Below are positions 1 through 30,933 of a stretch of DNA of 64,000 bases, piece by piece (position 1 is the first letter of the stretch; the number at the start of each line of letters is the position of its first letter). Location: the NCBI GenBank assembly GCA_030390025.1, contig CM059441.1:62558001-62622000 (forward strand), in the 5' to 3' direction. Made by a program: the position numbers and the translations under genes. This DNA is from Squalus acanthias (Eukaryota). The notes beneath the pieces were generated by a model, which did not search any database, had not been told where the DNA came from, and was given only the letters and a program-made list of their open reading frames with translations.

Positions 1-296
1 CTTTACAAGGCAGGAACAATGGATTAGGAGCACTCATAACTCACACCATTATCTCCATCATGAATCACTGAATAGTGTAAACGATTATTTTGCTCTACAA
101 CCCATCTGATCCGCTAAGGTGATTGTCTACTTGCTGTACTTTGGATCTTCATTGTCTAGGGAATCACTTTGGATCTTCCTTGTCTAAGGGATTATTTTAG
201 ATACAAAACCAGTGTTGTCGTAGTTTGATTCCAAAACAGCATTGTAGACTGACTTGTCCCCAAGTACAGTACTGACCCCACTGCAGCAGACACTTT

Positions 297-670
297 GGGC
301 TGGATTTTGTCTTGGGGTCGGGTTGGGGTCGTGTCATCCGCATTTCGTGTCCCCCCCCCCCGACTCCAGATTAATGTGGCTGAATGATGCAATTTTGACT
401 TAATTGGGCAATTGAGTTCCAGCATGTGGGAACCCATGAACTAATTAGTGGTTTCAGTCTGAAAGTCGCCTCTGATGATGTCATCATTGCTGCTGCCTGG
501 TTTCAGAGACTGACTGGATGTTGGTGAGAGAGGACCTGCCTGGCTTTTTGCTGTGAGTGGACGAGAGAGAGAGATAGAGATAGAGAGAGTGAGTCCAAGT
601 CCTCTCACACCAAATGCCATGCAGTCTCTGAAGACATTCAATGCAGCAGCATCACAGGCGACTTTCACAC
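297..670 (+). mobile_element. Fragment of a MITE-like element, left arm only
   Basis: Begins GGGCTGGATTTT, an end motif like GGCCAGAATTTT (13769) and GGCCGCGATTTT (62173-62184, minus). Takes the place of 29690-30359 of the right arm. Confidence 0.45.
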
Positions 671-789
671 CTTAGGGAAGGATATACTTGTTCCCTGCTC
701 CTGTACAATATTCTTCATTTCATAGGAAAGAAAGAGGAACTTAATTCATAGAATCATACAGCACAGAAGGAGTCCATTTGGCCCATCGT

Positions 790-1425
790 ACATTGGCTCC
801 CGGTCCGGCAACGCCTCAAATTTAAAATCCTCATCCTCGTTCTCCGCCACAAACTCCGTTCTCTAGCCACCGACTTCAGCCCTCTCCCAACATCTGTCTG
901 AGGCTGAACCAGACCGTTCGCAACCTTGGTGTCATATTTCACCCTGAAATGAGCTTCTGACCACATATCCGTGCCATAACTAAGACCTCCTATTTCCACC
1001 TCCATAACATCACCCGTCTCCGCCCCTGCCTCAGCTCATCCACTGCTGAAACCCTCATCCATGCCTTTGTTACCTCTAGACTTGACTATTCCAAGGCACT
1101 CCTGGCTGGCCTCCCACGTTCTACCCTACGTAAACTTGAGGTCATCCAAAGCTTGGCTGCCCGTGACCTAACTCGCAACAAATCCAATTCACCCATCAAA
1201 CCTGTGCTCGCTGACCTACATTGGCTGCTGGTTAAGCAATGCCGCGATTTTAAAATTCTCATCCTTGTTTTCAAATCCCTCCATGGCCTCGCCCCTCACT
1301 ATCTCTGTAATCTCCTCCAGCCCAACAACCTACCTCTGTGACCAAGCTTTTGGTCATCTGACCTAATTTCTCCTTATGTGGCTCAGGGTCAAATTTTGTT
1401 TTATAACACCCCTGTGAAGCGCCTT
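790..1425 (+). mobile_element. L2-clade LINE 3' fragments (tail continues at 6024-6080; mirror 28931-29567)
   Basis: ORF with PVLADLHWL..FKILILVFKSLHGLAP.YL, typical of the L2 ORF2 C-terminus. The tail CCTGTGAAGCGCCTTGGGACG is split by a CR1 insertion. Confidence 0.85.
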
Positions 1426-4363
1426 AAAAACATAAGAACATAAGAAATAGGAGCAGGAATTGGCCCCTCGAGCCTGCTCCACCATTCAATAAGATTATGG
1501 CTGATCTAGGGCTCAAAGCCACTTCAAAGCCCGCTCCCCATAACCCTTCACTCCCTTATCTTGCAAAAATTTGTCTATCTCCACTTTAAATGTATTTAAT
1601 GACCCAGCCTCCACAGCTCTCTGGTGCAGAGAATTCCACAAATTTACGACCCTCTGAGAGAAGAAGTTCCTCCTTATCTCAGTTCTAAAAGGGCGACCCT
1701 TTATTCTGAGACTGTGCCCCCGAGTTCTAGATTACCCCATGAGGGAAAACATCCTCTCTGCATCTACCCTGTCGAACCCCCTCAGTATTTTATATGTTTC
1801 GTTAAGATCACCTCTCATTCTTCTAAATTCCAATGAGTATAGGCCCAGCCGGCTCAACCTTTCCTCATAAGTCAAACCCCTCATCTCTGGAATTAACCTA
1901 GTGAATCGTCTCTGAACTGCCTCCAATGCAAGTATATCCTTCCTTATATAAGGAGACCAAAACTGTACGCAGTACTAAAGGTGTGGTCTCACCAATACCT
2001 TGTACAGTTGTAGCAGGACTTCCCTGCTTTTATACTCCAACCCCTTTGGAATAAAGGCCAACATTCCATTTGCCTTTTTGATTACTTGCTGTACCTGCAT
2101 GCTAACGTTTTGTGTTTCATGCACAAGGACCCCCAGGTCCCTCTGGACTGTAGCATTTTGTAATCTCTCTCCATTTAAATAATAGTTTGCTTTTTTATTT
2201 TTCCTGCCAAAGTGGATAACCTCGCACTTTCCCACATTATACTCCATCTGCCAAATGTTTGCCCACTCACCTAGCCTGTCTATATCCCTTTGCAGATTCT
2301 TTGAATCCTCGGCACAACTTGCTTTCCCGCCCATCTTTGTATGATCCGCAAACTTGGCTACAGTACACTCGATCCCTTCATCCAAGTCATTAATGTAGGT
2401 TGTAAATAGTTGGGGCCCCAGCACCGATCCTTGTGGCACCCCACTAGTTACCGTTTGCCAATCCTTGGGTCTCCCACCAATCTTGGCAACATTGTATGCC
2501 TTCGTTTTCCATTTGATACCATCCTTTACTTCCTGAGTTAGCTACGGATGGTGCTCCCTTCTCTTAAAATCTTTCATTTTCACTGGAATATATTTTTGTT
2601 GAGAGTTATGAAATATCTCCTTAAATGTCCGCCACTGCATTTCAACTTCCTTACCCTTGAATTTGTTTTTCCAGTCCACTTTAGTCAGTTCTGCCCTCAT
2701 GCCATTATAATTGCCTTTGTTTAAGATCTGGACACTGGTTTGGGATACAACTTTCTCACCCTCCAACTGAATTTGAAATTCAACCATGCTATGATCAGTC
2801 TTTCCTGGAGGATCCTTTACTAAGAGATAATTTATTAATTCTGTCTCATTACATAGTACCAGATCCAAGATAGCCTGCTCCCTGGTTGGTTCCATTACAT
2901 ACTGTTCTCGGAAAACATCCCGGATGCACTCTATGAACTCCTCCTCCAGGCTACCATGGCCAATTTGATTTGTCTAATCAATATGGAGATTAAAATCATC
3001 CATGATTATTACCGTACCTTTTTACAGGCCTCCATTATTTGTTGATTTACACTCTGTCCAACAGCATTGCTACTGTTCAGGGGCCTGTCGACTACGCCCA
3101 CAAGAGACTTTTTCCCCTTCTTATTTTTTATCTCCACCCAAACCAATTCTACATCTTGATCTTCTGAGTCAATATCACTTCTCGCCACTGCACTGATCCC
3201 ATCTTTTACCAACAAAGCCACCCCACCTCCCTTTGCTTTCTTTCTATCCTTCCGAATGATCATATACCCTGGATTATCCAGTTCCAGCCCTGGTCTCCTT
3301 GCAACCACGTCTCTGTAATGGCGATCAGATCATACCCATTTTATATCTATTTGTGCAGTCAACTCATTTATGTTGTTACGAATGCTGCGTGCATTCAAAT
3401 ATAGAGCTTTTAACTTTGTCTTTTTACCATTTCTCCTTGTTTTGGCCTTTTTTTCCTGTTACACTCTTATTTTTAAACATTCTGTCCCTTCCTGTCACAC
3501 TCTGGTTATTATTTCCCCCATCTCTACCCTGCTCTATTGCTTTCTCATTGACTTTTTATTTGCCCGCTCACCTGGATCCTCCCCCCCACTATTTAGTTTA
3601 AAGCCCTCTCTACAGCTCTAGTTATTCGATATGCCAGGACTCTAGCCCCAGCATGGTTCAAGTGAAGCCCATCCAAACGAAACAGCTCCCTCTTATCCCA
3701 GTACTGGTGCCAGAGCCCCACAAATCGAAACCTTTTCTCCCACACCAGTCTTTGAGCCACTCGTTCATTTCTCTGATCTTATTTACCCTATGCAAATTCG
3801 CTCGTGGCTAAGGTAGTAATCCAGGGATCATTACCTTTGTGGTTCTGCTTTTTAATTTATCCCTTAGCTACTCATACTCTCTCAGCAGAACCTCTTTCTT
3901 TGTCCTACCAATGTCATTGGTACCGACGTGGACCATGACAACTGGATCTTCCCCCTCCCACTCGAAGTTTCTCTCCAGCCCAAAGGAGATGTCCTTAACC
4001 CTAGCACCAGGCAGGTAACACAGCCTTCGGGACTCACGCTCTCGGCTGCAGAGAAGAGTATCTATCCCCCTCACTATACTGTCCCCAATCACTACAACAT
4101 TTCGTTTTGCTCCCCCCACTTGAATGGCTCCCTGTACCACGGTGCTGTGGTCAGTTTGCTCATCCTCCCTGCAGTCCCTGGCCTCGTCCACACAGGGAGC
4201 AAGAATCTCGTACCTGTTGGACAAGGCCAAGGGCTGAGGCTCCTCCACTACTACCTCCTGGATCCCAATACCTGCCTCGCTTGTAGTCACACCCTCCTGT
4301 CCCTGACCATGGGCCATATTGGAAGTAATTATTCTAGTGGGTGTGACCGCTTCCTGGAACATA

Positions 4364-5238
4364 GGGGGAGAAATTCAGTATCGCCCCATTTGTGGCGCAA
4401 TTATCGGCCGGGCGCAAAGATTAGCGCCTGGCGCTAATTATTGACTCCGACTGCAAACTTGACTTTTATCGCCCCTGGAGGTGATTGGAGTGCTAAATCA
4501 GGTGCTACACATCTGTCTTAAGGCCGAGGAGCGAGGCGCTAACTCAGAGCGCTGGCGAAGCTCATGTGATGTCAGTCAGCAATGGAACACAGACACAATG
4601 GCGCCGGCCAGTTCTTAAAGGGGAGGATTGATCTTGTTTTCCATCCACATCCTGCTCATTGCAGCCTTGAATCTCGACCTGAAGAGACCTGTACATCAAA
4701 TCTGCTGGAAAGAACAGTGGAGAGCACCAGGGAAAGAGCTCAGAGTGCAGCCCCCATAGTCTCTTCTAAATCGATACAAGGAAGGGCAAATCAAAATGAA
4801 CCTGCAAAGTGCTGCTCAGTACCCAAAACTCCTTCACACAGCATTGAATCTCTCCAGAAGTCTCTCTCAGAATGCGTGGCTCAAAAATGACACCAACAAA
4901 AAAAGGGAGGAAGCAGTCGCCTTTAAATAGCGCTCCCCCAGTCCCTTCCTGACTGCAAAATGCTCCCCTCAACCTGTCGTTGTTAGCGGCAGGCGGTAAG
5001 GCAGGGGGCGCCACTCAATATCCGCTCCGGGGCGCTACCGGGGCTTTGCGCACTTGACTGACGTCACGATCTGCCGGCGCAGGAGATCGTGGCGGTAGTG
5101 TTTAGTGCCGCCGCAAAATGTCTAGTTAATTTCGTGAGCGACGCAAACATCGCCGCGCCCGGGCCCCAGTTGCTTTGCGCCCCATTAGCGCCCTCTTAAG
5201 GCACTAACGGGATGCGCAACCAACCAAATTTTTCCCCC
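4364..5238 (+). mobile_element. PIF/Harbinger-type MITE family A (mirror 24220-25099)
   Basis: TIRs GGGGGAGAAATT...AATTTTTCCCCC, 3-bp TSD ATA/TAT; interrupts CR1 ORF1. Confidence 0.85.
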
Positions 5239-5626
5239 ATAGTGTCCAGGTAGCGCTCCCACTCCGTAATGTGTCGCAGTGTTTGAAGCTCGGACTCCAG
5301 CTCATAAACTCTGAGCCGAAGTTCCTCGAGCAGCCAATATTTGCTGCAGATGTGGTCGCCCTGGACCTCAATGGTGTCCACGAGCTCCCACATGCAACAA
5401 CAACAACACATTGCCTGGTCTCCCATCTCAATTAATTAATTAGGTTTAAAATTTGGAACACTTATATCTTTTAATCTACATCAAGACACTTAAATTTAGA
5501 CTCTCAAGTTTGGAAAAAAAAGCGAGAAAGAGAGAAATACTCACCAACCAATCACTTACCTATTTCTGGTGACGTCACACTTCGATTACTTTTTACTTCT
5601 TTACACTCACCGGTCTTTGTATCTCA

Positions 5627-6023
5627 GCTGCTCCCGCTGCTTTTGAACTCTCCCGGGTTTTGGCGCTCTCGCTCTGCTCCCGCTGCTTTTGAACTCTCCT
5701 GGGTTTTGGCGCTCTCGCTCTGCTCCCGCTGCTTTTGAACTCTCCTGGGTTTTGGCGCTCTCGCTCTGCTCCCGCTGCTTTTGAACTCTCCCGGGTTTTG
5801 GCGCACTCGCTCTGCTCCCGCTGCTTTTGAACACTCCCGGGTTTTGGCGCTCTCGCTCTGCTCCCGCTGCTTTTGAACTCTCCCGGGTTTTGGCGCTCTC
5901 GCTCTGCTCCCGCTGCTTTTGAAGTCTCCTGGGTTTTGGCGCTCTTGCTCTGCTCCCGCTGCTTTTGTGATTGCCGGGTTTTGGCGCTCTCGCTCTGCTC
6001 CCGCTGCTTTTGAACTCTCCTGG
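5627..6023 (-). repeat. 46-bp tandem monomers forming the CR1 5' end (~8.5 units; ~3.5 units at 23672-23840)
   Basis: Unit CTCTGCTCCCGCTGCTTTTGAACTCTCCCGGGTTTTGGCGCTCTCG; lies inside the CR1 target duplication. Confidence 0.93.
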
Positions 6024-6084
6024 GCCTTGGGACGTTTTACTACATTAAAAGCGCTATATACAAGTTGTTGTTTTTGTTGTTCGT

Positions 6085-6400
6085 CTGCAACAGGCTCGAG
6101 GGGCTGAATGGGCCTCCTCCTGTTCATATGCAACAGGCTTGAGGGGCTGAAAGGCCTCACCCTATTCGTAGGTAACAGTCTCAAGGGGCTGAAAGCCCTT
6201 ATCCTGTTCCTGTGCAACAGGCTCGAGTGTCTGAATGGCCGCCTCCTGTTCCTATGTAACAGGCTCGAGCGGCTTAATGGCCTTACCCTGTTCCTATGTA
6301 ACAGACTCAAATGGGCTGAATGGGCCTCCTCCTATTCCTATGTAACATGATCCAGGGGCAGATTGGGCCTCCTCCAGTTCCTGTGAGGTAACTGAAGTTC
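6085..6400 (+). repeat. ~41-42-bp minisatellite derived from the CR1 3' terminus (copies at 23330-23610 and 52705-52880)
   Basis: Unit AACAGGCTCGAGGGGCTGAATGGGCCTCCTCCTGTTCCTATGT matches CR1 3' ends such as 19665-19705. Confidence 0.85.
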
Positions 6401-6444
6401 AACGAAATGCCAGAAATATGTGAGGAACTCAAAAGTTTTATTCA

Positions 6445-7530
6445 TTCATGGGATGTGGGCTTTGCTGGCAAAGCCAGAATTTATTGCGCATCCCTAATTG
6501 CGCTTGAGAAGGTGGTGGTGTACTGCCTTCTTGAACCGCTACAGTCTGTGTGGTGAAGGTACTCCCAAAGTGCTGTTAGGGAGGGAGTTCCAGGATTTTG
6601 ACCCAGCGATGATGAAGGAATGGCGATATATTTCCAAGTCATGATGGCATGTGACTTGGAGGGGAAGTTGGGGGTGATGGTGTTCCCATTCACCTGCTGC
6701 CCTTGTCCTTCTAGGTCGTAGAGGTTGAGGGTTTGGAGATGCTGTAGAAGAAGTCTTGACAAGTTGCTGCAGGGCATTTTATAGATGGTACACACCGCAG
6801 ACACTGTGCGCCGGTGTTGGAGGGAGTGAATGTTTAAGGTGGTGGATTGGGTGCTTATCAAGCAGACTGCTTTGTCCTGGATGGTGTAAAATCTTTTGAG
6901 TATTGTTGGAGTTGCACTCATACAGGAAAGTGGCGAGTATTCCATCACACTCCTGACTTGTGCCTTGTCGATGATGGAAAGGCTTTGGGGAGTCAGGAGG
7001 TGAGATACTCGCTGCAGAATTCCCAGCCTCTGACCTATTCTTGCAGCCAAAGTATTTATGTGGCTGGTCCAGTTCAGTTTCTGGTCAATGGTGACCCCCA
7101 GGATGTTGATGCTGGGGGATTCGGTGATGGTAATGCCATTGAATGTTAAGGGGCAGTGGTTAGACACTCTCTTGTTGGAGATAGTCATTGACTGGCACTT
7201 CTGTGGCACAAATATTATTTGCCACATATAAGCCTGAATGTCGTCCAAATCTTGCTGCATGCGGGCACAGACTGCTTCATTATCTGAGGAGTTGCGAATG
7301 GCGCTGAACACAGTGCAATCCGAAGTAAACATCCCCACTTCTGACCTTATGCTGGAGAGAAGATCATTAATGAAGCAGCTGAAGATGGTTGGGCCTAGGA
7401 TACTGGCCTGACGAACACCTGCAGCAATGACCTGGGGCTGAGATGATTGGCCTCTAACAACCACACCCATCTTTCTTTGTGCTCGGTATAACTTCAGCCA
7501 GTGAAGAGTTCTCCCCCTGATTCGCATTGA
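6445..7530 (-). mobile_element. 5'-truncated CR1-superfamily LINE, second family (mirror ~22170-23255; extra 3' pieces 7845-8135 and 21530-21815)
   Basis: RT motifs ILGPTIFSCFINDL, GMFTSDCT, PQKCQ, LGVTIDQKLNW, QVRSVMEYS. Confidence 0.85.
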
Positions 7531-9718
7531 CATCAATTCTACTAGGGCTCCACACTCAGTCAAATGCTGCCTTAATGTTTGCAGGATGTTCAATGTAGAA
7601 GTAGACAACATAAACCCCCAGATCTCAACAACAGCTGAAACAACAACTGTGCTCATTTAACACATTGCAAAATCCCTCGCTCATCCACTTTTACACCCTT
7701 GCCTCCAACCAGTGAGGCTCCATGTCTCTGGTGGAATGTCCAAACATCTGGCTCACAGTGAACTTCCAAATCACTTAAAGGCAAGCGGCCAAATTGGGAG
7801 TAAAGCTCTTACAATTCTGCTTCAGAAATGTTCCTTAACCTCACACAACCTAGAAGGAAAAGGGCAACTGGCGCATGGGAACACCATCACCTCCAAGTTT
7901 CCCTCCAAGTAACACACACACCATCCCAAATTGATGATATATCAGCCATTCCCTCATCGTTGCTGGGTCAAAATCCGGGAACTCACTACCTAATGGCACT
8001 GTGGGCGCACCTTCACCACACGGACTGCAGTAGTTCAAGAAGGCGGCCCATCGCCAACTTCTCAAGGGGCGACTAGGGATGGGCAATAAATGCCAGCCTT
8101 GCCAGCAATGCCCACAACCTGAGAATGAATTTAATGAAAACACAAGAAGAACAATCTTGTCTTGTGCCAAGCCAATTGGCGTCACAGCCAATCTTTGTGA
8201 CCTCTCGGAACCAAGCCATAAATTGGTGCCACTCAATGCCCAAATGGGGGCTGTTGTGTATAGATTCAGTGCCAGCAGTAGCTTCGTTGATAGAAATTCT
8301 GCTGCACCACTCCTGGTGCACTCCAGGAGTGCGCCGTTTCCAATGTCACGCACACGTAGCAAATGGAGAATGTTCTCCCTGAACCTTATTCTCAACGTGA
8401 TTGGACATGTATCCATTCCGTGATTTTCTGCTACAATAGCCACCTGAGTTCTTTGTAGATCTTAGTTACGTTAGTATTCTCCAGCTCTTAAGGCAGTGAC
8501 TGATACTTGGGTCCAGTTCCACAGTTGCAGCAGGGCACGGTGCCTAAACCAGGTAGCCATTCTGCAAGTGTTCGCAGACAAATGGGCTGTTTGATCATGA
8601 AGGGCAGCACCCTTGAAACCAAATCTGTCCACACTCAACCCGAGCTTAACAGAGGGAATTAGCGGTTACAGATTCAGAGCAGGAGCGTTACTTATTTTCC
8701 CACTGCTTGACTCATGGACCTGGTTGCGATTTTTAACCGAACACAGACCAGTACAAGGATCGAGGATCTTGGCCTCTATTCTGTGTTATACAGCATGGTT
8801 CCTCCCATCCACTGGGCCACCTCGGCGGACAATAATTGTACTTTCAAAGATTGAAAGACTAAAATAGTTGTTTATTGTAGCTGTAGTTCATTCTGTAATC
8901 AAAGCTGTTTCATCCATCTAGGATATTATAAAAAATCTTACATCTGCAAGCAACCTTCCACGTCAGAATTTCCTCCATCCACATTTACAATGGGAACTGC
9001 CTATGTAAACATGTCACATTGTAATTACACCCTTCCATCAGTGGTGGCGCTGTAGAGCCTGTTTCATGTCTCCCCGTTCCTCAGTCTGTACTGCAGAGAA
9101 TCTCCCAATTCTCCAACTCTGGGTCCCTGCTTCCCACATTGCTGTTAGTTTTGCTGTTTCACTATGAATGATAATATAAAATCAAAGTATTACATGAAAA
9201 TAAGCGGAAGAATGCATGACTGTAAAATAGCGAGTAAATTATACTGATCCGCCCTGGTCCAATTATCCTCTAACCCTGCTTCCCCTGGAGTCCACACTTG
9301 GTTAGGACCATGCTGTAAACATTCACAGACAGGAGAGTTAATCACAAAATTAAAATTGCCTCAAGCACACACACACGGGATTGAATCCACGACTATCCTG
9401 GTGGATTGTCTATCAATACCTAAAGACATTTATAATCACAATGGAGAGAAGGATGACTCCAACAGTGAGGGGCAATCCTGAAGGAGGACGTACGCAACTA
9501 AACCCATTGAGAATGATCTGGGCTGTATCATCATTCAACTTTGTGAGATAACATCAGCTCTACAAAACTGCATCAGATTATGTCAAGAAGTTTAGAACTA
9601 ATTTTTTGGGGGGTCGGGATCAAAGTCCTGTGGTTTCTAGGAAGATAAAGTGGAGTTTCCAATTGATTCTCTTCTTCTGTGCTGTTCCCAGAGTGTGTGT
9701 TTCTCATTCTTGCTCAGA

Positions 9719-9835
9719 TTATACATTTGCATACACAGGACTCTCGTCAAACTTGCAGTTTTCGTAAATATCATGATCTTGATATGAATTGATGCGGCGG
9801 TTAGATTTGATTTCCAGGTCCTCCTCCTCTTTCTT
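9719..9835 (-). CDS. Terminal cytoplasmic exon of Siglec-like receptor, unit A: KKEEEDLEIKSNRRINSYQDHDIYENCKFDESPVYANV*
   Basis: Polypyrimidine acceptor TTTCCTTTTCTATTACAG, phase-0 open frame to TAA, two Tyr motifs, AATAAA at 8871-8876 (minus). Assignment to the Siglec-like family is by context. Confidence 0.75.
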   Translation of the reverse strand, partial: KKEEEDLEIKSNRRINSYQDHDIYENCKFDESPVYANV

Positions 9836-9959
9836 CTGTAATAGAAAAGGAAATGAGCAGAGAGACAATCAGCATGATCTGCATTTGGTATCTTCGAATC
9901 CAATTAGAAAATTCCACCTGTATTTGCTGCCAATGATTCTTGATTCTGAACAGTGTTGG

Positions 9960-11410
9960 AATATAAGAACAGGAGGAGGCCTTTCAGCCCCTCGAGCCTG
10001 TTCCACTATTCAATTAGACCATGACTGATCTGTATCTTAACTCCATCATTCTGCCTCGGTTCCGTAACCCTTAATATCCTTGGCTAACAAAAAACTTATC
10101 CATCTCATTTTTAATATTTTCAATTGACTCCCAGCCTCAGCAGCATTTTGGGGGCAGAGAGTTCTAGATTACCACTACCCTATGTGTGAAGAAGTGCTTC
10201 CTGGCATCACCCCTGAATGGCCTCGCTCTAATTTTAAATTTATCTCCCCTTGTTCTGGACTCTCCCACCAAAGGAAATTATTTATATCTACCCTATTATA
10301 TCTTTTAGCAATCTTAAACACCTCTATTAGATCACCGCTTAATCTTCGATACTCGAGGAAATACAAGCCTAGTCTTTCTAACCTGTCCTCATAATTTAAC
10401 CCTTTTAGCACCGGTATCTTTCTGGTGAATCTGCGCTGCACCCCCTCCTTCCTGAGGTGCGGTGCCCAGAACTCAACACAATACTCCAGATGGGGTCTAA
10501 TCAGAGCTTTATATAACTGTAACATAACCTCTATCACTTTGTATTCCAGTCCCCTTGAGATAAAGGCCAACATTCCAGTAACCTTTTAAAATATTTTTTG
10601 TACCTGTCCACTCGATTTTAGTGATTTCTGTGCTTGGACCCCTAAATCTCTCTGTTCATCCACAGTTCCTAGCTTCTCACCATTTAGAAAATAATCTGAT
10701 TTCTCTTTCTTAGGTCCAAAGTGGATGTCCTCACACTTCCCCAAATTGAACTCCATCTGCCACAGTATTGCCCGCTCACTTAATCTATCAATGTCCCTTT
10801 GCAACTTTCTGCTCCCATCTACACTATTTACTGTGCCACTTAAGTTAGTGTCATCAGCAATCTTGGATATATGGCTCTCTATTCCTTTGACTAACCCATT
10901 TATAAATAATGTGAAAAGCTGAGTCCCCAGTACAGATCCATGGGAGACACCACTAGTCACATTCTGCCAATTTGAGTACATACCCATTATCCCATCTCTC
11001 TGTCTACTACCTCCTAACCAATTCCATACCCATGTCAATTGGTTGCATCCAATTCCATGCACTCACATTTTTGTTAAGAGTTTTTTATGTGGAACCTTAT
11101 CGAATGCCTTCTGGAAGTCCATATAAATAACATCCATAGACACTCCCTTATCTACTATGTAAGTGACCTCAATAAAATCAACCAGGTTCGTTAGACATGA
11201 CTTACCCTTTACCAACATGACTAATCCATGTTGGCTCTCTCTGATCAGCTCCTGTTTGTCCAAATGCTCAGTCACTCTGTCCCTAATAACAGATTGTAGT
11301 AACTTCCCCACACCAGACATTAGACGAATAGGCATATAATCGTCAAGTTTATCTCTCTTATCCTTCTTAAATAATGGAGCGACATTTCCAATCAAAGGGG
11401 ACAATTCCAG
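9960..11410 (-). mobile_element. Degraded CR1 RT fragment (mirror ~18255-19705; internally deleted paralog ~50790-51225)
   Basis: KGKSCLTNL, YMDFQKAFDKVPH, IADDT, WQMEFN, with frameshifts. Confidence 0.9.
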
Positions 11411-13075: not shown

Positions 13076-13169
13076 TAGAAGGCATCAATCATTGGAATCA
13101 GTCTTTATAAAGTCACAAAACCAACAAAAGATGACGTTGGTCGTGGAAGTGAATTACAATCATTGCGTT

Positions 13170-16066: not shown

Positions 16067-16107
<41 letters not shown>

Positions 16108-19940: not shown

Positions 19941-20785
19941 TCTGAGCAAGAATGAGAAACACGCACTCCAGGAACAGCACAGAAGAAGAGAATCAATTCG
20001 AAACTCCACTTTATCTTCCTAGAAACCACAGGACTTTGATCCCGACCCCCCAAAAATTAGTTCTAAACTTCTTGACATAATCTGATGCAGTTTTGTAGAG
20101 CTGATGTTATCTCACAAAGTTGAATGATGATACAGCCCAGATCATTCTCACTGGGTTTAGTTGCGTACGTCCTCCTTCAGGATTGCCCCTCACTGTTGGA
20201 GTCATCCTTCTCTCCATTGTGATTATAAATGTCTTTAGGTATTGATAGACAATCCACCAGGATAGTGGTGGATTCAATCCCGTGTGTGTGTGCTTGAGGC
20301 AATTTTAATTTTGTGATTAACTCTCCTGTCTGTGAATGTTTACAGCATAGTCCTAACCAAGTGTAGACTCCAGGGGAAGCAGGGTTAGAGGATAATTGGA
20401 CCAGGGCAGATCAGTATAATTTACTGTACTCGCTATTTTAAAGTCATGCATTCTTCCGCTTATTTTCTTGTAATACTTTGATTTTATATTAACATTCATA
20501 GTTAAACAGCAAAACTAACAGCAATGTGGGAAGCAGGGATGCAGAGTTGGAGAATTGGGAGATTCTCTGCAGTACAGACTGAGGAATGGGGAGACATGAA
20601 ACAGGCTCTACAGCGCCACCACTGATGGAAGGGTGTAATTACAACGTGACATGTTTACATAGGCAGTTCCCATTGTAAATGTGGATGGAGGAAATTCTGA
20701 CGTGAAAGGTTGCTTGCAGATGTAAGATTTTTATAATATCCTAGATGGATGAAACAGCTTTGATTACAGAATGAACTACAGCTAC

Positions 20786-20791
20786 AATAAA
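20786..20791 (+). terminator. Candidate polyadenylation signal (paralogs 8871-8876 minus, 52360-52365)
   Basis: AATAAA ~850 nt after the stop, conserved in all three copies near the end of the shared non-repeat block. Confidence 0.6.
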
Positions 20792-20837
20792 CAACTATTT
20801 TAGTCTTTCAATCTTTGAAAGTACAATTATTGTCCGC

Positions 20838-21185
20838 CAAGGTGGCTCAGTGGATGGGAGGAACCATGCTGTATAACACAGAATAGAGGCCAAGATCCTC
20901 GATCCTCGTACTGGTCTGTGTTCGGTTAAAAATCGCAACCAGGTCCATCAGTCAAGCGGTGGGAAAATAAGTAACGCTCCTGCTCTGAATCTGTAACCGC
21001 TAATTCCCTCTGTTAAGCTCGGGTTGAGTGTGGACAGATTTGGTTTCAAGGGTGCTGCCCTTCATGATCAAACAGCCCATTTGTCTGCGAACACTTGCAG
21101 AATGGCTACCTGGTTAGGCACCGTGCCCTGCTGCACCTGTGGAACTGGACCCAAGTATCAGTCACTGCCTTAAGAGCTGGAGAAT
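20838..21185 (+). mobile_element. Old tRNA-derived SINE-like element (mirror ~8480-8825; paralog ~52415-52675)
   Basis: A-box-like TGGCTCAGTGG, degenerate B-box, three paralogous copies; family not identified. Confidence 0.4.
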
Positions 21186-23671
21186 ACTAACGTAACTAAG
21201 ATCTACAAAGAACTAAGGTGGCTATTGTAGCAGAAAATCACGGAATGGATACATGTCCAATCACGTTGAGAATAAGGTTCAGGGAGAACATTCTCCATTT
21301 GCTACGTGTGCGTGACATTCGAAACGGAGCACTCCTGGAGTGCACCAGGAGTGGTGCAGCAGAATTTCTATCAACGAAGCTACTGCTGGCACTGAATCCA
21401 AACACAACAGCCCCCATTTGGGCATTGAGTGGCACCAATTTGTGGCTTGGTTCCGAGAGGTCACAAAGATTGGCTGTGACGCCAATTGGCTTGGCACAAG
21501 ACAAGTTTGCTCTTCTTGGGTTTTCTTTAAATTAATTCTCGGGTTGTGGGCATTGCTGGCAAGGCTGGCATTTATTGCCCATCCCTAGTCGCCCCTTGAG
21601 AAGTTGCTGGTGGGCCGCCTTCTTGAACTGCTGCAGTCTGTGTGGTGAAGGTGCTCCCACAGTGCCATTAGCTAGTGAGTTCCGGGATTTTGATCCAGCA
21701 ACGATGAGGGAATGGCTGATATATCATCAAGTTGGGATGGTGTGTGTGTGTTACTTGGAGGGAAACTTGGAGGTGATGGTGTTCCCATGCGCCAGTTGCC
21801 CTTGTCCTTCTAGGTTGTGTGAGGTTAAGGAACATTTCTGAAGCAGAATTGTAAGAGCTTTACTCCCAATCTGGCTACTTGCCTTTAAGTGATTTGGAAG
21901 TTCACTGTGAGCCAGATATTTGGACATTCCACCAGAGACAAGGAGCCTCACTGGTTGGAGGCAAGGGTGTAAAAGTGGATGAGCGAGGGATTTTGCAATG
22001 TGTTAAATGAGCACAGTGAGTTCATTCTGAAGAAAATATTACAGTAATGGCTGTTGTTGTTTCAGCTGTTGTTGAGATCTGGGGGTTTATGTTGTCTACT
22101 TCTGCATTGAACATCCTGCAAACATTAAGGCAGCATTTGACTGAGTGTGGAGCCCTAGTAGAATTGATGTCAATGCGAATCAGGGGGAGAACTCTTCACT
22201 GGCTGAAGTCATACCGAGCACAAAGAAAGATGGTTGTGGTTGTTAGAGGCCAATCATCTCAGCCCCAGGTCATTGCTGCAGAGTTCCTCAGGGCGGTGTC
22301 CTAGGCCCAACCATCTTCAGCTGCTTCATTCATGATCTTCTCTCCAGCATAAGGTCAGAAGTGGGGATGTTTACTTCGGATTGCACTGTGTTCAGTTCCA
22401 TTCGCAACTCCTCAGATAATGAAGCAGTCTATGCCCGCATGCAGCAAGATTTGGACGAGATTCAGGCTTATATGTGGCAAGTAATATTTGTGCCACAGAA
22501 GTGCCAGTCAATGACTATCTCCAACAAGAGAGAGTCTAACTACTGCCCCTTAACATTCAATGGCATTACCATCACCGAATCCCCCAGCATCAACATCCTG
22601 GGGGTCAACATTGACCAGAAACTTAACTGGACCAACCACATAACTACTTTGGATGCAAGAGCAGGTCAGAGGCTGGGAATTTTGAGGCGAGTATCTCACC
22701 TCCTGACTCCCCAAACCCTTTCCACCATCTACAAGGCACAAGTCAGGAGTGTGATGGAATACTCGCCACTTTCCTGAATGAGTGCAGCTCCAACAATACT
22801 CAAAAGATTTGACACCATCCAGGACAAAGCAGTCTGCTTGATACGCACCCAATCCACCACCTTAAACATTCACTCCCTCCAAGACCGGCGCACTGTGTCT
22901 GCAGTGTGTACCATCTACAAAATGCCCTGCAGCAACTTGTCAAGACTTCTTCTACAGCATCTCCAAACCCTCAACCTCTACGACCGAGAAGGACAAGGGC
23001 AGCAGGTGAATGGGAACACCATCACCTCCAACTTCCCCTCCAAGTCATACGCCATCATGACTGGGAAATATATCGCCATTCCTTCATTATCGCTGGGTCA
23101 AAATCCTGGAACTCCCTCCCTAACAGCACTTTGGGAGTACCTTCACCACACAGACTGTAGCGGTTCAAGAAGGCAGCACACCACCACCTTCTCAAGCGCA
23201 ATTAGGGATAGGCAATAAATTCTGGCTTTGCCAGCAAAGCCTACATCCCATGAACGAATAAAACTTTTGAGTTCCTCACATATTTCTGGCATTTCGTTGA
23301 ACTTTAGTTACCTCACAGGAACTGGAGAAGGCCCAATCTGCCCCTGGATCCTGTTGAATTGGAGGAGGCCCATTCAGCCCCTTGAGTCTGTTACATAGGA
23401 ACAAGATAAGGCCATTCAGCCCCTCGAGCCTGTTACATAGGAACAGGAGGAGGCAATTCAGCCACTCGAGCCTGTTGCATAGGAACAGGGTAAGGGCTTT
23501 CAGCCCCTTGAGACTGTTACATACGAATAGGGTGAGGCCATTCAGCCCCTGAAGCCTGTTGCATATGAACAGGAGGAGGCCCATTCAGCCCCTCGAGCCT
23601 GTTGCATACGAACAACAAAAACAACAACTTGTATTTATATTGCGTTTTAATGTAGTAAAACTTCCCAAGGC

Positions 23672-26600
23672 CCAGGAGAGTTCAAAAGCAGCGGGAGCAG
23701 AGCGAGATCGCCAAAACCCGGGAGAGTTCAAAAGCAGCGGGAGCAGAGCGAGAGTGCCAAAACCCGGGAGAGTTCAAAAGCAGCGGGAGCAGAGCGAGAG
23801 CGCTAAAACCAGGCAGAGTTCAAAAGCAGCGGGAGCAGCTGAGATACAAAGACCGGTGAGTGTAAAGCAGTAAAAAGTAATCGAAGTGTGACGTCACCAG
23901 AAAGCAGGTAAGTGGTGAGTATTTCTCTATTTCTTGCTTTTTTTCCAAACTTGAGAGTCTAAATTTAAGTGCCTTCGTGTAGATTAAAAGATATAAGTGT
24001 TCCAAATTTAAAACCAAATTAATTAATTGAGATGAGAGACCAGGCCATGTGTTGTTGTTGTTGCATGTGGGAGCTCGTGGACACCATTGAGGTCCATGGT
24101 GACCACATCTGCAGCAAATGTTGGCTGCTCGATGAACATCAGCTCAGAGTTGATGAGCTGGAGTCCGAGCTTCAAACACTGCGACACATTAGGGAGCGGG
24201 AGCGCTTCCTGGACAATATGGGGGAAAAATTCAGTTGGTTGCGCCTCCCGTTAGCACCTTAAGAGGGCGCTAATGGGGCGCAAAGCAACTTGCGCCCGGG
24301 CGCAGCGATGTTTGCGCCGCTCGCGAAATTACCTAGACATTTTGCGGCGGCGCTAAACACTACTGCCACGATCTCCTGCACCAGCATATCGTGACGTCAG
24401 TCGAGTGCGCAATGCCCCGGAAGTGCCCCAGAGCGGATATTCAGTGGCGCCCCCTGCCTTACCGCCTGCCGCTAGCAACGACAGGTTGAGGGGAGCATTT
24501 TGCAGTCAGGAAGGGACTGGGGGAGCGCTATTTAAAGGCGACCGCTTCCTGCCTTTTTTTGTTGGTGACATTTTTGAACCACGCATTCTGAGAGAGAGAG
24601 AGAGACTTCTGGAGAGATTCAACGCTGTGTGAAGGAGTTTTGGGTACTGAGCAGCACTTTGCAGGTTAATTTTGATTTGCCCTTCCTTGTATAGATTTAG
24701 AAGAGACTGTTGGGGCTGCACTCTGAGCTCTTTCCCTGGTTCTCTCCATTGTTCTTTCCAGCAGATTTGATGTACAGTTCTCTCCAGGCCGAGATTCAAG
24801 GCTGCAATGAGCAGGGTGTGGATGGAAAGCAAGAACAACCCTCCCCTTTAAGAACTGGCCGGCCATTGTGTCTGTGTTCCATTGCTGACTGACATCACAT
24901 GAGCTTCGCCAGTGCTCTGAGTTAGCGCTTCGCTCCTCGGCCTTAAGACAGATGTGTAGCGCCTGATTTTGCACTCCAATCACCTCCAGGGGCGATAAAA
25001 GTCAAGCTTGCAGTCGAGGCGATAATTAGCACCAGGCGCTAATCTTTACGCCAGGCTGATAATTGCGCCCCAAATGGGGTGATACTGAATTTCTCCCCGT
25101 ATGTTCCAGGAGGCAGTCACACCCACTAGAATAATTACTTCCAATTTGGCCCATGGTCAGGGACAGGAGGGTGTGACTACAAGCGATGCAGGTATTGGGA
25201 TCCAGGAGGTAGTGTTGGAGGAGCCTCAGCCCTTGGCCTTGTCCAACAGGTATGAGATTCTTGCTCCCTGTGTGGACGAGGCCAGGGACTGCAGGGAGGA
25301 TGAGCAAACTGACCACCGCACCATGGTACAGGGAACCATTTAAGTGGGGGGAGCAAAAAGAAATGTTGTAGTGATTGGGGACAGTATAGTGAGGGGGATA
25401 GATACTGTTCTCTGCAGCCGAGAGCATGAGTCCCGAAGGCTGTGTTGCCCGCCTGGTGCCATGGTTAAGGACATCTCCTTTGGGCTGGAGAGAAACTTGG
25501 AGTGGGAGGGGGAAGATCCAGTTGTCATAGTCCACGTAGGTACCAATGACATTGGTAGAACAAAGAAAGAGGTTCTGCTGAGGGAGTATGAGCAGCTAGG
25601 GACTAAATTAAAAAGCAGAACCACAAAGGTAATAATCTCTGGATTACTACCTGAGCCACGAGCGAATTTGCATAGGGTAAATAAGATCAGAGAAATGAAC
25701 GAGTGGCTCAAAGACTGCTGTGGGAGAAATGGGTTTCGATTTGTGGGGCTCTGGCACCAGTATTGGGATAAGAGGGGAGCTGTTCCGTTTCGACGGGCTT
25801 CACTTGAACCACGCTGGGGCTAGAGTCCTGGCAAATCGAATAACTAGGGCTGTAGAGAGGGCTTTAAACTAAATAGTGGGGGGGAGGATCCAGGTGAGCG
25901 GGCAAATAAAAAGTCAATGAGAAAGCAATAGAGCAGGCTAGAGATGGGGGAAATAATAACCAGAGTGTGACAGGAAGGGACAGAATGTTTAAAAATAAGA
26001 GTGTAACAGGAAAAAAAGGCCAAAACAAGGAGAAATGGTAAAAAGACAAAGTTAAAAGCTCTATATCTGAATGCACGCAGCATTCGTAACAACATAAATG
26101 AGTTGACTGCACAAATAGATACAAATGGGTATGAACTGATCGCCATTACAGAGACGTGGTTGCAAGGAGACCAGGGCTGGGAACTGAATATTCGGAAGGA
26201 TAGACAGAAAGGAATGGGAGGTGGGGTGGCTTTGTTGGTAAAAGATGGGATCAGTGCAGTGGTGAGAAGTGATATTGGCTCAGAAGATCAAGATGTAGAA
26301 TCGGTTTGGGTGGAGATAAAAAATAATAAGGGGAAAAAGTCTCTTGTGGGCGTAGTCTACAGGCCCCCGAACAGTAGCAATGCTGTTGGACAGAGTGTAA
26401 ATCAACAAATAATGGAGGCCTGTAAAAAGGTATGGTAATAATCATGGGTGATTTTAATCTCCATATTGATTGGACAAATCAAATTGGCCATGGTAGCCTG
26501 GAGGAGGAGTTCATAGAGTGCATCCGGGATGTTTTCCGAGAACAGTATGTAATGGAACCAACCAGGGAGCAGGCTATCTTGGATCTGGTATTATGTAATG

Positions 26601-28930
26601 AGACAGAATTAATAAATGATCTCATAGTAAAGGATCCTCTAGGAAAGAGTGATCATAGCATGGTTGAATTTCAAATTCAGTTGGAGGGTGAGAAAGTTGT
26701 ATCCCAAACCAGTGTCCAGATCTTAAACAAAGGCAATTATAATGGCATGAGGGCAGAACTGACTAAAGTGGACTGGAAAAACAAATTAAAGGGTAAGGAA
26801 TTTGAAATGCAGTGGCGGTCATTTAAGGAGATAATTCATAACTCTCAACAAAAATATATTCCAGTGAGAATGAAAGATTTTAAGAGAAGGGAGCACCATC
26901 CGTGGCTAACTAAGGAAGTAAAGGATGGTATCAAATTGAAAACGAAGGCATACAATGATGCCAAGATTGGTGGGAGTCCAGAGGATTGGGAAATTTTTTA
27001 AAACCAGCAAAGGATGACTAAAAAAATAATAAAGAGAGAGAAGATGAATTATGAGAGTCAGAGGGCAAGAAACATTAAAACAGATAGTAAGAGCTTCTAC
27101 AGGTATATAAAAAGGAAGAGGGTATCTAAAGTAAACGTTGGTCCCTTAGAGGATGAGACTGGGGAATTAATAATGGGGAACAGGGAAATGGCAGGGACTC
27201 TGAACAAATATTTTGCATCTGTCTTCACTGTAGAAGACACCAACAACATCCCAATAACGGATAATCAGGGGGCCACAGGGAGTGGGGAACTTAAGACAAT
27301 CACTATCACTAAGGAAATAGTACTCGGTAAAATAATGGGACTAAAAGACAACAAGTCCCCTGGACCAGATGGCCTACATCTCAGGGCCTAAAAGAAGTGG
27401 CTGCAGAGATAGTGGATGCATTGGTTGCAATATATCAAAATTCCCTGGACTCTGGAGAGGTCCCAGCAGATTGGAAAATCGCTAATGTAACACCCCTATT
27501 TAAGAAAGGAGGGAGACAGAAAGCAGGAAACTATAGACCAGTTAGCCTAACATCTGTCGTTGGGAAAATGCTGGAGTCCTTCATTAAGGAAGCAGTAGCA
27601 GGGCATTTAGAAAAACATACTTCAGTCAAACAGAGTCAGCATGGTTTTAGGAAAGGGAAATCATGTTTAACAAATTTGCTGAAGTTCTTTGAGGATGTAA
27701 CAAGCAGGGTGGACAAGGGCGAGCCAGTGGATGTGGTGTATTTGGATTTCCAGAAGGCATTCGATAAGGTGCCACATAAAAGGTTACTGCATAAGATAAG
27801 AGCTCACGGAGTTGGGGGTAAAATATCAGCATGGATAGAGAATTGGCTAACTCACAGAAAGCAGAGAGTCGGGATAAATGGGTCATTTTCTGGTTGGCAA
27901 ACGGTAATTAGTGGGGTGCCACAAGGATCGGTGCTGGGGCCCCAACTATTTACAATCTACATTAATGACTTGGATGAAGGGATCGAGTGTACTGTAGCCA
28001 AGTTTGCGGATCATACAAAGATGGGCGGGAAAGCAAGTTGTGCAGAGGACTCAAAGAATCTGCAAAGGGATATAGACAGGCTAGGTGAGTGGGCAAACAT
28101 TTGGCAGATGGAGTATAATGTGGGAAAGTGTGAGGTTATCCACTTTGGCAGGAAAAATAAAAAAGCAAACTATTATTTAAATGGAGAGAGATTACAAAAT
28201 GCTACAGTTCAGAGGGACCTGGGGGTCCTTGTGCATGAAACACAAAAAGTTAGCATGCAGGTACAGCAAGTAATCAAAAAGGCAAATAGAATGTTGGCCT
28301 TTATTTCAAGGGGGTTGGAATATAAAAGCATGGATGTCCTGCTACAACTGTACAAGGTATTGGTGAGACCACACCTTGAGTACTGCGTACAGTTTTGGTC
28401 TCCTTATTTAAGGAAGGATATACTTGCATTGGAGGCAGTTCAGAGACGATTCACTACGTTAATTCCAGAGATGAGGGGTTTGACTTATGAGGAAAGGTTG
28501 AGCCGGCTGGGCCTATACTCATTGGAATTTAGAAGAATGAGAGGTGATCTTAACGAAACATATAAAATACTGAGGGGGTTCGACAAGGTAGATGCAGAGA
28601 GGATGTTTTCCCCTCATGGGGTAATCTAGAACTCGGGGGCACAGTCTCAGAATAAAGGGTCGCCCTTTTAGAACTGAGATGAGGAGGAACTTCTTCTCTC
28701 AGAGGGTCGTAAATTTGTGGAATTCTCTGCACCAGAGAGCTGTGGAGGCTGGGTCATTAAATACATTTAAAATGGAGATAGACAAATTTTTGCAAGATAA
28801 GGGAGTGAAGGGTTATGGGGAGCGGGCTGGGAAGTGGCTTTGAGCCCTAGATCAGCCATAATCTTATTGAATGGTGGAGCAGGCTCCAGGGGCCAATTCC
28901 TGCTCCTATTTCTTATGTTCTTATGTTTTT
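23672..28930 (+). mobile_element. Near-full-length CR1 LINE, defective (mirror of 1426-6023)
   Basis: ORF pieces 24032-24262 and 25101-25823 (ORF1 zinc finger + esterase), 26103-27391 (APE endonuclease: IAITETWL, GGGVAL, MGDFN, SDH), 27397-28629 (RT). AAGGC flanks. Confidence 0.96.
24220..25099 (-). mobile_element. MITE family A copy in right-arm CR1 ORF1
   Basis: TAT-flanked, same TIRs and body as 4364-5238. Confidence 0.85.
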
Positions 28931-29689
28931 AAGGCGCTTCACAGGGGTGTTATTTAACAACATTTGACCCTGAGCCACATAAGGAGAAATTAGGTCAGAT
29001 GACCAAAAGCTTGGTCACAGAGGTAGGTTGTTGGGCTGAAGGAGATTACAGAGATAGTGAGGGGCGAGGCCATGGAGGGATTTGAAAACAAGGATTAGAA
29101 TTTTAAAATTGAGACATTGCTTAACCAGCAGCCAATGTCGGTCAGCGAGCACAGGTTTGATGGGTGAATTGGATTTGTTGCAAATTAGGTCATGGGCAGC
29201 CAAGCTTTGGATGACCTCAAGTTTACGTAGGGTAGAACGTGGTAGGCCAGCCAGGAGTGCCTTGGAATAGTCAAGTCTAGAGGTAACAAAGGCATGGATG
29301 AGGGTTTCAGCAGTGGATGAGCTGAGGCAGGGGCGGAGACGGGCGATGTTATGGAGGTGGAAATAGGAGGTCTTAGTTATGGCACGGATATGTGGTCAGA
29401 AGCTCATTTCAGGGTGAAATATGACACCAAGATTGCGAATGGTCTGGTTCAGCCTCAGACAGATGTTAGGAGAGGGATGGAGTCAGTGGCTAGAGAACGG
29501 AGTTTGTGGCGGAGAACGAGGATGAGGATTTTAAATTTGAGGCGTTGCCGGACCGGGAGCCAATGTACGATGGGCCAAATGGCCTCCTTCTGTGCTGTGT
29601 GATTCTATGATTCTCTGAATTAAGTTCCTCTTTCTTTCCTATGAAATCAAGAATATTGCAGAGGAGCAGTGAACAAGTATATCCTTCCT

Positions 29690-30210
29690 GAAGGATATAC
29701 TTGCCATAGAGGGAGTGCAATGAAGGTTCACCAGACTGATTCCTGGGATGGGGGGATTGTCCTAGGAGCAGAGATTGAGTAGACTAGGCCTATATTTGCT
29801 AGAGTTTAGAAGAATGAGAGGTGATCTCATTGAAACATACAAAAAATCTTGCAGGGCTTGACAGGGTAGATGCAGGGAGGATGTTTCCCCTGGCTGGGGA
29901 GGCTAGAACGAGGGTCACAGTCTCAGAATAAGGGGTTGGCCATTTAGGACTGAGATGAGGAAAAATTTCTTCACTCAGAGGGTGGTGAATCTTTGGAATT
30001 CTCTACCCCAGAGGTCTGTGGAATCTCAGTCGTTGAGTATATTCAAGACAGAGATCGATAGATTTTTGAATATTAAGGGAATCAAGGGAGTTGGGGATAC
30101 TGCAGGAAAGTGGAGATGAGGTAGAAGATCAGCCATGATCTTATTGAATGGCAGAGCAGGCTCGAGGGGCGAAATGGCGTACTCCTTCTCCTATTTCTTA
30201 TGTTCTTATG
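29690..30210 (+). mobile_element. CR1 3' fragment
   Basis: Matches the 3' end of the 28400-28930 CR1; TTCTTATG tail. Confidence 0.88.
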
Positions 30211-30933
30211 TGAGAGGTGTTTGCCATCACTGTTTAGTGTGAGGTCCAGTTCAGTTTAACAAACCCGCACTGAGACCGTCTGTAAAAGTTATAAACCCAA
30301 CACAGCTGCACCTCCGACACATTTAGTGCTCAGGTGAGAGGCGCTTTGCTACTCTGCTTCAAAGTGTCTGCTGCAGTGGGGTCAGTACTGTACTTGGGGA
30401 CAAGTCAGTCTACAATGCTGTTTTGGAATCAAACTACGACAACACTGGTTTTGTATCTAAAATAATCCCTTAGACAAGGAAGATCCAAAGTGATTCCCTA
30501 GACAATGAAGATCCAAAGTACAGCAAGTAGACAATCACCTTAGCGGATCAGATGGGTTGTAGAGCAAAATAATCGTTTACACTATTCAGTGATTCATGAT
30601 GGAGATAATGGCGTGAGTTATGAGTGCTCCTAATCCATTGTTCCTGCCTTGTAAAGTAGTGCAGAATACATCTCTATTGCAGGCATTGCGTTGGGTGGAA
30701 GACTTGCTTCACTAAATAGGGTCCTGAGGTCCGTGACCAAAATATAGAACAAACTTCTCCACTCCCGTGTCCAGGAATCCCTTCCATCCATTGAGTAACC
30801 TTGGTGAGTTTGTTCCTTGTCCTGTAGATGGTACACACTGCAGCCACTATACGCCAGTGTCGGAGGGAGTGGATAGGGAGTCTAGTTGAGTGAAAAGCCG
30901 TCCAGTGCTAAATATTGATATTTCTCTCCTCAG

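Follow-up and report, generated by a model that had tools for sequence, protein, structure and literature searches.

The assembly of Squalus acanthias contains, within the 64-kb stretch of DNA analysed here in full (the window), a long inverted repeat centered on a scaffold gap, and the question that it raises is whether the chromosome itself is palindromic at this position or whether the inversion arose when contigs were joined. In the assembly the repeat is present far above chance, with blastn HSPs that span 0.9-3.8 kb and are 94-97% identical (E=0). The left arm (1-14269, - strand) is a whole contig end reaching the gap (14270-14469), which is a round 200 N whose count does not give the real extent; 200-N gaps are reported in a YaHS-scaffolded assembly (PMC12134992). 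The right arm (14680-30656, + strand) mirrors it after 210 bases without mirror (14470-14679), which start within a C-rich 15-25-bp tandem repeat (14470-14578; C accounts for 86 of the 141 bases of 14470-14610). At the outer end a tip (1-297) matches 30360-30656 (+ strand), a fragment of the intron preceding a V exon, with one mismatch in 297 (99.7% identity), and tip and core are parted by a non-homologous block at ~298-675 on the left and ~29689-30359 on the right. Between the gap and 30656, 11,732 of 16,187 bases match other repeats in the window. The arms have the inverted orientation and high identity (96.6% over 13,126 columns) of a palindrome, but the contiguous spacer that a palindrome should have is replaced by the 200-N gap, a fact of the assembly that the chromosome need not share. 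The preliminary description, which reported a >30-kb palindrome with a spacer of the gap plus ~210 bp and cautioned that the gap leaves orientation and adjacency unproven, is in agreement with these observations.

When the core (left 676-14269) is aligned globally, 452 of 13,126 columns (3.44%) are mismatches, comprising 250 transitions, 85 of them lying at CpG, and 202 transversions; there are 41 indels, with both arms carrying extra sequence, and the 452 substitutions compare with 18 one-base indels. Polarization against a downstream paralogue (2,044 columns; see below) places 16 changes on the left arm and 23 on the right, with 6 unresolved. Sequencing error was rejected as the source, both from the substitution/indel spectrum and from the occurrence of changes on both arms relative to this paralogue, and as judged from the alignments the divergence is biological and old. 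It is ~17 times the diversity of the epaulette shark (0.002) and >40 times the whale shark's heterozygosity (0.08%), the comparator in each case being another shark species. Paralogy is therefore likely, and the arms most likely originated as paralogues; the earlier estimate of ~3-4% substitutions with indels on both arms, and the opinion that such divergence favours paralogy, both hold.

Near-identity between the arms is seen in two short patches, one at the tip and one at an exon designated Y. Near-allelic divergence of the kind expected of a false duplication is found in the 297-bp tip alone and not in the core, the yardstick being the 0.2% and 0.08% of the two other sharks; the tip matches the level expected of alleles, its similarity having a binomial P=3.5e-4 under the substitution rate of the core and being equalled in 48 of 12,830 core windows. 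The second patch, within the core, spans 305 mismatch-free columns, a length reached in 49 of 5,000 permutations. Selection behind the near-identity of exon Y is unsupported, as this exon is 16.5% from the downstream paralogue and its flanks 10.5-12%.

Each arm contains just the last two exons (Y and Z) of a short Siglec-like gene, facing outward. Profile and tblastn searches place no leader, V, C2 or TM exon inside either arm, nor any hidden leader, second C2 or TM exon, and real profile matches are limited to 35375 and 48905. The left exon Y (13176-13260, - strand; 85 nt) has intact AG/GT junctions and is in frame with the left terminal exon Z (9719-9835, - strand), which is open, encodes two tyrosine motifs, and is 76% identical to Pristiophorus P0025. 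The right exon Y (16575-16660, + strand; 86 nt) has one extra base, and the frame is therefore shifted and the tyrosine motifs lost; the right terminal exon Z (19833-19940, + strand) has a 9-nt deletion that remains in frame. The canonical ITIM consensus is [ILVS]xYxx[LV]. Of the two tyrosine motifs of exon Z, DIYENC and PVYANV, neither fits at position -2 and the distal one alone has Yxx[LV], such that the tail does not have the canonical ITIM plus distal tyrosine motif of CD33-related Siglecs. A search for a full-length protein carrying the left tail, a weak test with a 42-residue query, passed none of 11 candidates. A candidate exon of 49 nt, near 15430 and 49960, was discarded, as TM, Y and Z join in frame when it is left out.

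The two Y copies lie 3.3 kb apart, each followed by its exon Z, and had been interpreted as divergent promoters ~3.2 kb apart in a pair of head-to-head Siglec-like units. They are cytoplasmic-tail exons instead, corresponding to the exon after the TM exon in shark Siglec-like proteins, and the flanking sequence in the arms matches the TM-Y intron and continues to exon Z. Exon Y matches 14 of the 58 proteins, lying directly after the TM segment in 12 and ahead of a leader or V in 3, with both arrangements in one. The inverted layout of the two units is present in the assembly, but they are not complete, consisting of outward-facing tails with no ectodomain exons. A promoter role for exon Y is rejected as its primary one by context, although promoter activity may occur, given that a paralogous exon precedes leader exons. 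A third Y-type exon (34430-34510, + strand; 81 nt) has a leader exon 0.8 kb downstream. In several sharks exon Y also precedes leader exons.

The reference for exon assignment is a downstream Siglec-like gene (35333-51515) composed of leader (35333-35414), V (39971-40335), C2 (40971-41264), TM (48903-48999), Y (50212-50296) and Z (51384-51515) exons, all on the + strand and with AG/GT at every internal junction. All of its parts are present, but the V exon is one base short and the frame breaks there, with the first stop at codon 129; this shortfall may be a consensus error. A second C2 exon considered at 48584-48870 receives no support from the profile. Between the right arm and this gene are a Siglec-type V-set exon (30934-31302, + strand), beyond the visible mirror, and a C2 exon (32533-32874, + strand). 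The V exon has an in-frame TAG at 30993 and no leader exon upstream of it within the right arm, and its own mirror would be expected ~277-645 bases before the window start; a local inversion interrupts the C2 exon, with 32668-32874 matching 41386-41179 reversed. Within the 64 kb the cluster has four or more partial units, and no intact type I membrane frame (leader, V, C2, TM and tail) is present in the window.

As first proposed, and as indicated by the homologies of its V and C2 exons, the locus is a Siglec-like cluster, the exons behind the V-set match lying outside the arms. The best 18 PDB matches of the V domain are all Siglecs, and both Pfam V-set and Ig_CD22 exceed the cut-off for 39973-40287. 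Relative to the mammalian groups, V matches sialoadhesin (E=1.3e-12), Siglec-5 (5e-12), Siglec-8 (1.3e-11) and MAG (1.5e-11), and C2 matches CD33 (3.5e-6) and MAG (4.7e-6). An essential arginine and an A-strand tryptophan serve sialic-acid binding. When aligned with sialoadhesin 1url, the window has an Arg on Arg97 and a Trp on Trp2, both retained by both window V exons; cysteines align with Cys17, Cys22 and Cys79, and the C2 exon carries the extra cysteine, in keeping with a predicted Siglec-type pattern of a V intra-sheet pair and a V-C2 bond cysteine. The mammalian context against which the locus was initially set is not appropriate, as all 58 of the 58 protein matches to the V exon are elasmobranch, and mammalian origin is rejected from these matches together with the CR1-type LINE content. 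In a tree of 54 shark and ray rows these group mostly by lineage, as expected of a cluster with lineage-specific expansion, with weak deep support and no starred placement for the window rows. The 64-kb window yielded no non-Siglec gene flanking the cluster.

Both contigs stop in the same GC-rich element, at points of it no more than 210 bases apart, and with the right end inside the C-rich tandem repeat. The left half-copy (13770-14269, - strand) and the right half-copy (14470-15187, + strand; 94.5% over 508 bp) have the same outer end, which resembles, as judged by eye, the ends of inverted-repeat (MITE-like) elements in the window; the element appears transposon-like, its class being assigned from this end resemblance alone. 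The left copy interrupts the intron between the TM exon and exon Y, and homology to the intron of the downstream gene begins exactly at 13769/49714. A MITE with perfect 16-nt terminal inverted repeats (15582-16474) is present at its site in the right arm only. It is 6.2% and 6.8% from two shared MITE copies that are themselves 6.3% apart, and as it is as distant from these as they are mutually, this arm-specific difference is therefore old. Conversion between MITE copies was rejected, with no tract and with informative sites dividing 3/4/2. A 908-bp CR1-type LINE segment (26986-27893, + strand) is absent from the left arm. There are no Rfam matches.

With moderate confidence, we favour an old segmental duplication in a tandem elasmobranch Siglec-like cluster that was inverted through scaffolding, rather than a true 30-kb palindrome. 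The duplicated block extends from the GC-rich element in the post-TM intron through Y and Z and ~10 kb of LINE, SINE and MITE debris to the pre-V intron. The low-complexity repeat of the element probably interrupted sequencing in both copies, and the contig between the two breaks would then have been joined in reverse, setting two tail starts back to back. The chromosome itself would, in this model, carry the copies in head-to-tail order, with a separate leader-V-C2-TM half preceding each tail; a functional receptor bearing two tyrosine motifs in its cytoplasmic part could end in the left tail, the right tail being frameshifted, and occasional short gene-conversion tracts between the copies would account for the two near-identical patches. 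Segmental duplications and GA-rich DNA are known sites at which assembly gaps concentrate, and misorientations arise beside duplications (PMC10234299). The cluster parts listed in this analysis are on the + strand in 14 of 14 cases to the right of the gap and on the - strand in 4 of 4 to its left, and a single flip therefore renders the window collinear. Neither tail has a 5' gene half beside the gap, which a reversed contig would explain with no lost DNA required. The flip of the left contig is nevertheless something that we infer from the layout of the sequence, and there are points against it: the left contig has its far end beyond the window, an assembly would tend to break at the axis of a true palindrome too, the tip has the single mismatch in 297 expected of alleles, and human misoriented regions overlap real inversion polymorphisms in 81% of cases, and inverted states beside duplications are therefore often genuine (PMC10234299). 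A tandem duplicate with a flipped contig is the simplest rival to a palindrome and was overlooked in the preliminary description; the half coverage proposed there as a test could not expose it.

A false duplication, in which the arms are divergent haplotypes of one locus, broken at the same element, and an unpurged alternate contig was scaffolded in reverse beside the primary, is unlikely although it has several points in its favour. Duplicated pairs separated by a gap on one scaffold, as here, are a listed hallmark of false duplications, 61-92% of which are on the same scaffold in VGP assemblies (PMC9516828); the contigs both end at the same place, and identity rises at the tip to 99.7%, near shark allelic diversity. 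However, it demands 3.44% allelic divergence across 13 kb of mostly repeat DNA, as well as an old presence/absence difference of a MITE and a 908-bp deletion, and falsely duplicated regions have merely 1.5-1.8 times the background heterozygosity (PMC9516828). The 305-column identical patch in the core also indicates that the tip may be another conversion tract.

We are more doubtful of a real inverted duplication whose long spacer is unsequenced and in which both leader-V-C2-TM halves lie head to head in the gap. Each outward tail requires a 5' half toward the gap, the left tail is intact, and primate SIGLEC11 and SIGLEC16 are arranged head to head, ~9 kb apart, with gene conversion (PMC5701461). 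At least ~2 x 14 kb of absent DNA would be needed, as gauged from 35333-48999 of the downstream gene, and the remaining visible cluster is laid out on a single strand; moreover, the tract common to the primate pair consists of 5' exons, and that shared here of 3' tails and debris only.

Similarly doubtful is a real fold-back with a short spacer, centered on a DNA-transposon-like element through aberrant transposition or break repair, with both tails orphans. The axis is inside an element whose end resembles window MITE ends, and sister-chromatid Ac/Ds transposition yields flanking inverted duplications (PMC3744419). No missing DNA is required, and local rearrangements are seen elsewhere in the cluster, the C2 inversion among them; the element class, however, is based solely on end resemblance. 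Long-lived palindromes usually homogenise or delete near the axis. Here identity does not rise toward the axis, the innermost 500 columns differing at 20 (4.0%) with no homogenisation. The left tail also remains open, and the Y and Z exons differ little between arms (2 substitutions in 193 columns, P=0.037, a value that the conversion-like tract confounds).

Very unlikely is the more elaborate proposal that the inversion is real, arose at a DNA transposon in a Siglec intron and has lasted ~10^7 generations or more with patchy conversion, with exon Y in dual use, coding for part of the tail in one gene and serving the next as a first exon linked to a promoter, and the outward tails doubling as divergent starts spliced to leaderless V exons. 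Such an arrangement would restore the preliminary description in modified form.

If the tandem duplication with a reversed contig is correct, the window should be flagged for curation as the site of a probable misjoin within an immune cluster that evolves rapidly; one or two Siglec-like genes would be split by it, and gene counts would be distorted. Should the inversion be real, shark Siglec clusters would contain inverted paralogues with conversion, as in primates, and possibly an old and stable palindrome made by a transposon. A full-text search, with subscription journals mostly outside its scope, found no paper on the elasmobranch Siglec-like cluster, which looks thinly described, although RefSeq already names its genes.

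An inverse duplication of the mammalian Siglec cluster has reportedly been the subject of a paper. The window pair resembles primate SIGLEC11/SIGLEC16 in consisting of inverted Siglec paralogues with conversion-like patches of identity, but the primate genes are two whole genes with ~3 kb of 5' exons in common in finished sequence (PMC5701461), whereas the window pair shares a 14-16 kb 3' tail and repeats, its 5' exons are unseen, and its join is a gap. As in false duplications and misoriented contigs, there is a gap between copies on the same scaffold and the contigs end at a duplication and low-complexity DNA (PMC9516828, PMC10234299), although the divergence is much higher than in typical heterotype duplications. 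Products of Ac/Ds alternative transposition likewise have an inverted repeat with its axis in a transposon-like element (PMC3744419), but here the axis is unsequenced and the transposase gene, element family and junction are not in evidence. The closest relatives are the elasmobranch Siglec-like clusters, whose RefSeq and UniRef models are named Siglec-12/13-like, CD33-like, MAG-like and sialoadhesin-like. None of the matches is this species' own protein, and in contrast to these models the window copies are fragmentary or broken; an inverted pair of tails cannot be revealed by protein records. Identity to the window is 60-78% for V, with 78% the best, and up to 92% for C2; the same TM-Y-Z tail is present in Pristiophorus P0025 and Heptranchias P0035, and the same V-C2-TM-Y-Z order in Carcharodon P0049.

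Self-comparison of the window reveals a single dominant inverted repeat, in which positions 1-14269 (left arm) are mirrored by 14680-30656 (right arm), with a 200-N gap (14270-14469) and 210 unmirrored bases between them. In a global alignment of the arms, from which one non-homologous block was removed before counting, the core (the aligned arms apart from their outer ends) differs by 452 mismatches in 13,126 columns (3.44%) and by 41 indels, of which 18 are one base long; the outer 297 bases (the tip; 1-297 versus 30360-30656) show one difference. The large indels comprise a 0.9 kb MITE with perfect 16-nt ends present in the right arm only, a 908 bp CR1-type LINE segment absent from the left arm, and changes in tandem-repeat length. 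The copy number of a 46-bp tandem repeat also differs, at 8.7 on the left (5628-6024) and 3.7 on the right (23671-23838). The arms, gap and divergence measured in the preliminary description are therefore sound. Its palindrome of more than 30 kb stands as a real duplication with inverted arms in the assembly, viewed across a presumed join; it is not demonstrated as a palindrome, as its axis is a gap.

The key to reading the arms is the rightwards Siglec-like gene downstream of the repeat (35333-51515), the one place where tblastn and profile searches with the retrieved shark and ray proteins found the complete architecture: leader (35333-35414), V (39971-40335), C2 (40971-41264), transmembrane (48903-48999), first cytoplasmic tail exon Y (50212-50296) and terminal exon Z (51384-51515). 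Internal junctions are all AG/GT and phases fit, the exception being V, which lacks one base near 40287; the gene is otherwise complete and is either a young pseudogene or a working CD33-sized receptor with a consensus error. Of 99 candidate proteins, 58 match the V exon; every one of the 58 is a named record from a shark or ray, and the top match, from Pristiophorus, is 78% identical. A tree of V+C2 sequences puts the rows from the window close to Pristiophorus and Heterodontus and not in the large clade of catshark, carpet-shark and mackerel-shark rows; none of these placements is starred. The DNA is, judged by its sequence, elasmobranch. By a crude count, 21 of the 58 gene models have 2-7 tandem V-set domains ahead of the first C2, which could reflect receptors with several V domains, a choice of V exons served by a single leader, or fusions made in annotation. 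The C2-transmembrane intron houses (41600-47800) a decayed LTR-type element with terminal repeats at 41631-41749 and 47672-47790 (88% identical) and a 153-codon open stretch with no Pfam match. LINE fragments are abundant in the window (RVT_1, endonuclease and GDSL-like Pfam matches).

Both arms match the 3' end of this gene (49714-50396 and 51012-52675) at 81-88%, in the order end of the post-transmembrane intron, exon Y, intron, exon Z and 3' flank, followed by about 10 kb of repeats and a fragment of the intron preceding V exons. No leader, V, C2 or transmembrane exon was found in either arm by tblastn and profile searches. In 12 of the 58 proteins exon Y directly follows the transmembrane segment as the first cytoplasmic exon, in one fixed frame, and 11 of these run on into a Z-type end. 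What were taken as facing promoters are thus tail exons directed outwards from the gap, and the head-to-head Siglec units of the preliminary description give way to outward tails only. The left tail keeps an open frame as far as two tyrosine motifs. In the right tail, exon Y carries an extra base, and the frame ends early. Barely outside the visible mirror lies a V exon (30934-31302) with an in-frame stop and no leader, and the C2 exon behind it is interrupted by a 207-bp inversion (32668-32874) with loss of ~55 bp; short microhomology is seen by eye at the inversion junction. Beyond the tail of the downstream gene, at 58901-59286, comes another copy of the pre-V intron segment, giving the same succession of tail, debris and intron as in the arms; between this copy and the window end there is no V exon.

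One part of the promoter reading retains some support. A third Y-type exon (34430-34510, 81 nt) lies 0.8 kb ahead of the leader (35333-35414) and has fallen out of phase with the transmembrane exon, and Y-type exons precede the leader or V in 3 of the 58 models (P0001, P0043, P0050), in varying frames; a first-exon role is therefore possible. Y-type sequence may be a dual-use exon or reflect read-through in gene models, and its dual placement is a side lead. Ets-like and AP-1-like motifs are visible by eye just upstream of 34430-34510.

The arms cease to match the downstream gene's intron at 13769 (left) and 15188 (right); there each carries one end of a GC-rich element, the same end in both, which by eye is similar to MITE ends elsewhere in the window. 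The right contig begins within a C-rich tandem repeat, and the left contig ends 210 bases short of the right contig's start point in the element; the break thus fell within one and the same element in both contigs. A YaHS-scaffolded assembly is reported to have gaps of exactly 200 N (PMC12134992), and the gap here is presumably a scaffolding join of that kind. According to PMC10234299, assembly gaps are concentrated at duplications and GA-rich DNA.

The differences between the arms are evolutionary: in the core there are 25 substitutions for every one-base indel, CpG sites account for a third of the transitions, and derived changes occur on both arms. At 7e-10 per generation, an epaulette-shark rate taken from another species and with a tenfold interval, 3.44% corresponds to about 2.5e7 generations (1.2e7 to 1.2e8); it is about 17 times epaulette-shark diversity. 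The GC-rich MITE family of roughly 0.9 kb, which we take to be PIF/Harbinger-like, has four copies (4357-5239, 15582-16474, 24219-25099 and 59577-60433), most sites having 3-bp A/T-rich target duplications. Compared with flanking arm DNA, its copies diverge at about double the rate; the right-only copy has diverged as far as the shared copies have, and this difference between the arms is therefore old. Divergence and the old MITE difference favour paralogy; the tip, 99.7% identical as between alleles, counts against it. A second near-identical patch covers exon Y (305 columns without mismatch; 49 of 5,000 permutations, and 145 and 447 of 5,000 at two looser settings). Both patches adjoin a large heterology, which would fit conversion tracts.

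The layout is probably artefactual. At about even chances, the arms would be paralogues in tandem, shown inverted because the middle contig was flipped in assembly, a history that would account for the orphan tails, common break point, strand pattern and divergence without missing DNA. That one arm is a divergent haplotig seems unlikely: a gap between copies is a hallmark of false duplication (PMC9516828), but unusual allelic divergence is called for. Somewhat less probable still is a real head-to-head pair with its 5' halves inside the gap, like SIGLEC11 and SIGLEC16 (PMC5701461), which requires a large missing contig. Equally doubtful is a real fold-back at the GC-rich element, of a kind that Ac/Ds sister-chromatid transposition can yield (PMC3744419); homogenisation at the axis, which would have supported it, is absent. 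These weights are a matter of judgement. The repeat is an ordinary kind of feature, of modest interest as a curation target.

A literature search found no dedicated study of shark or elasmobranch Siglec clusters, which does not imply absence from print. The best 18 PDB matches of the downstream gene's V domain are Siglecs, and it retains the residues aligned with sialoadhesin Trp2, Cys17, Cys22, Cys79 and Arg97, while being roughly equidistant from sialoadhesin, Siglec-5, Siglec-8 and MAG, so that these matches do not single out the CD33-related group. DAP12-coupled Siglecs have a basic residue in the transmembrane segment, whereas the segment at 48903-48999 has instead a central glutamate, also present in Pristiophorus models.
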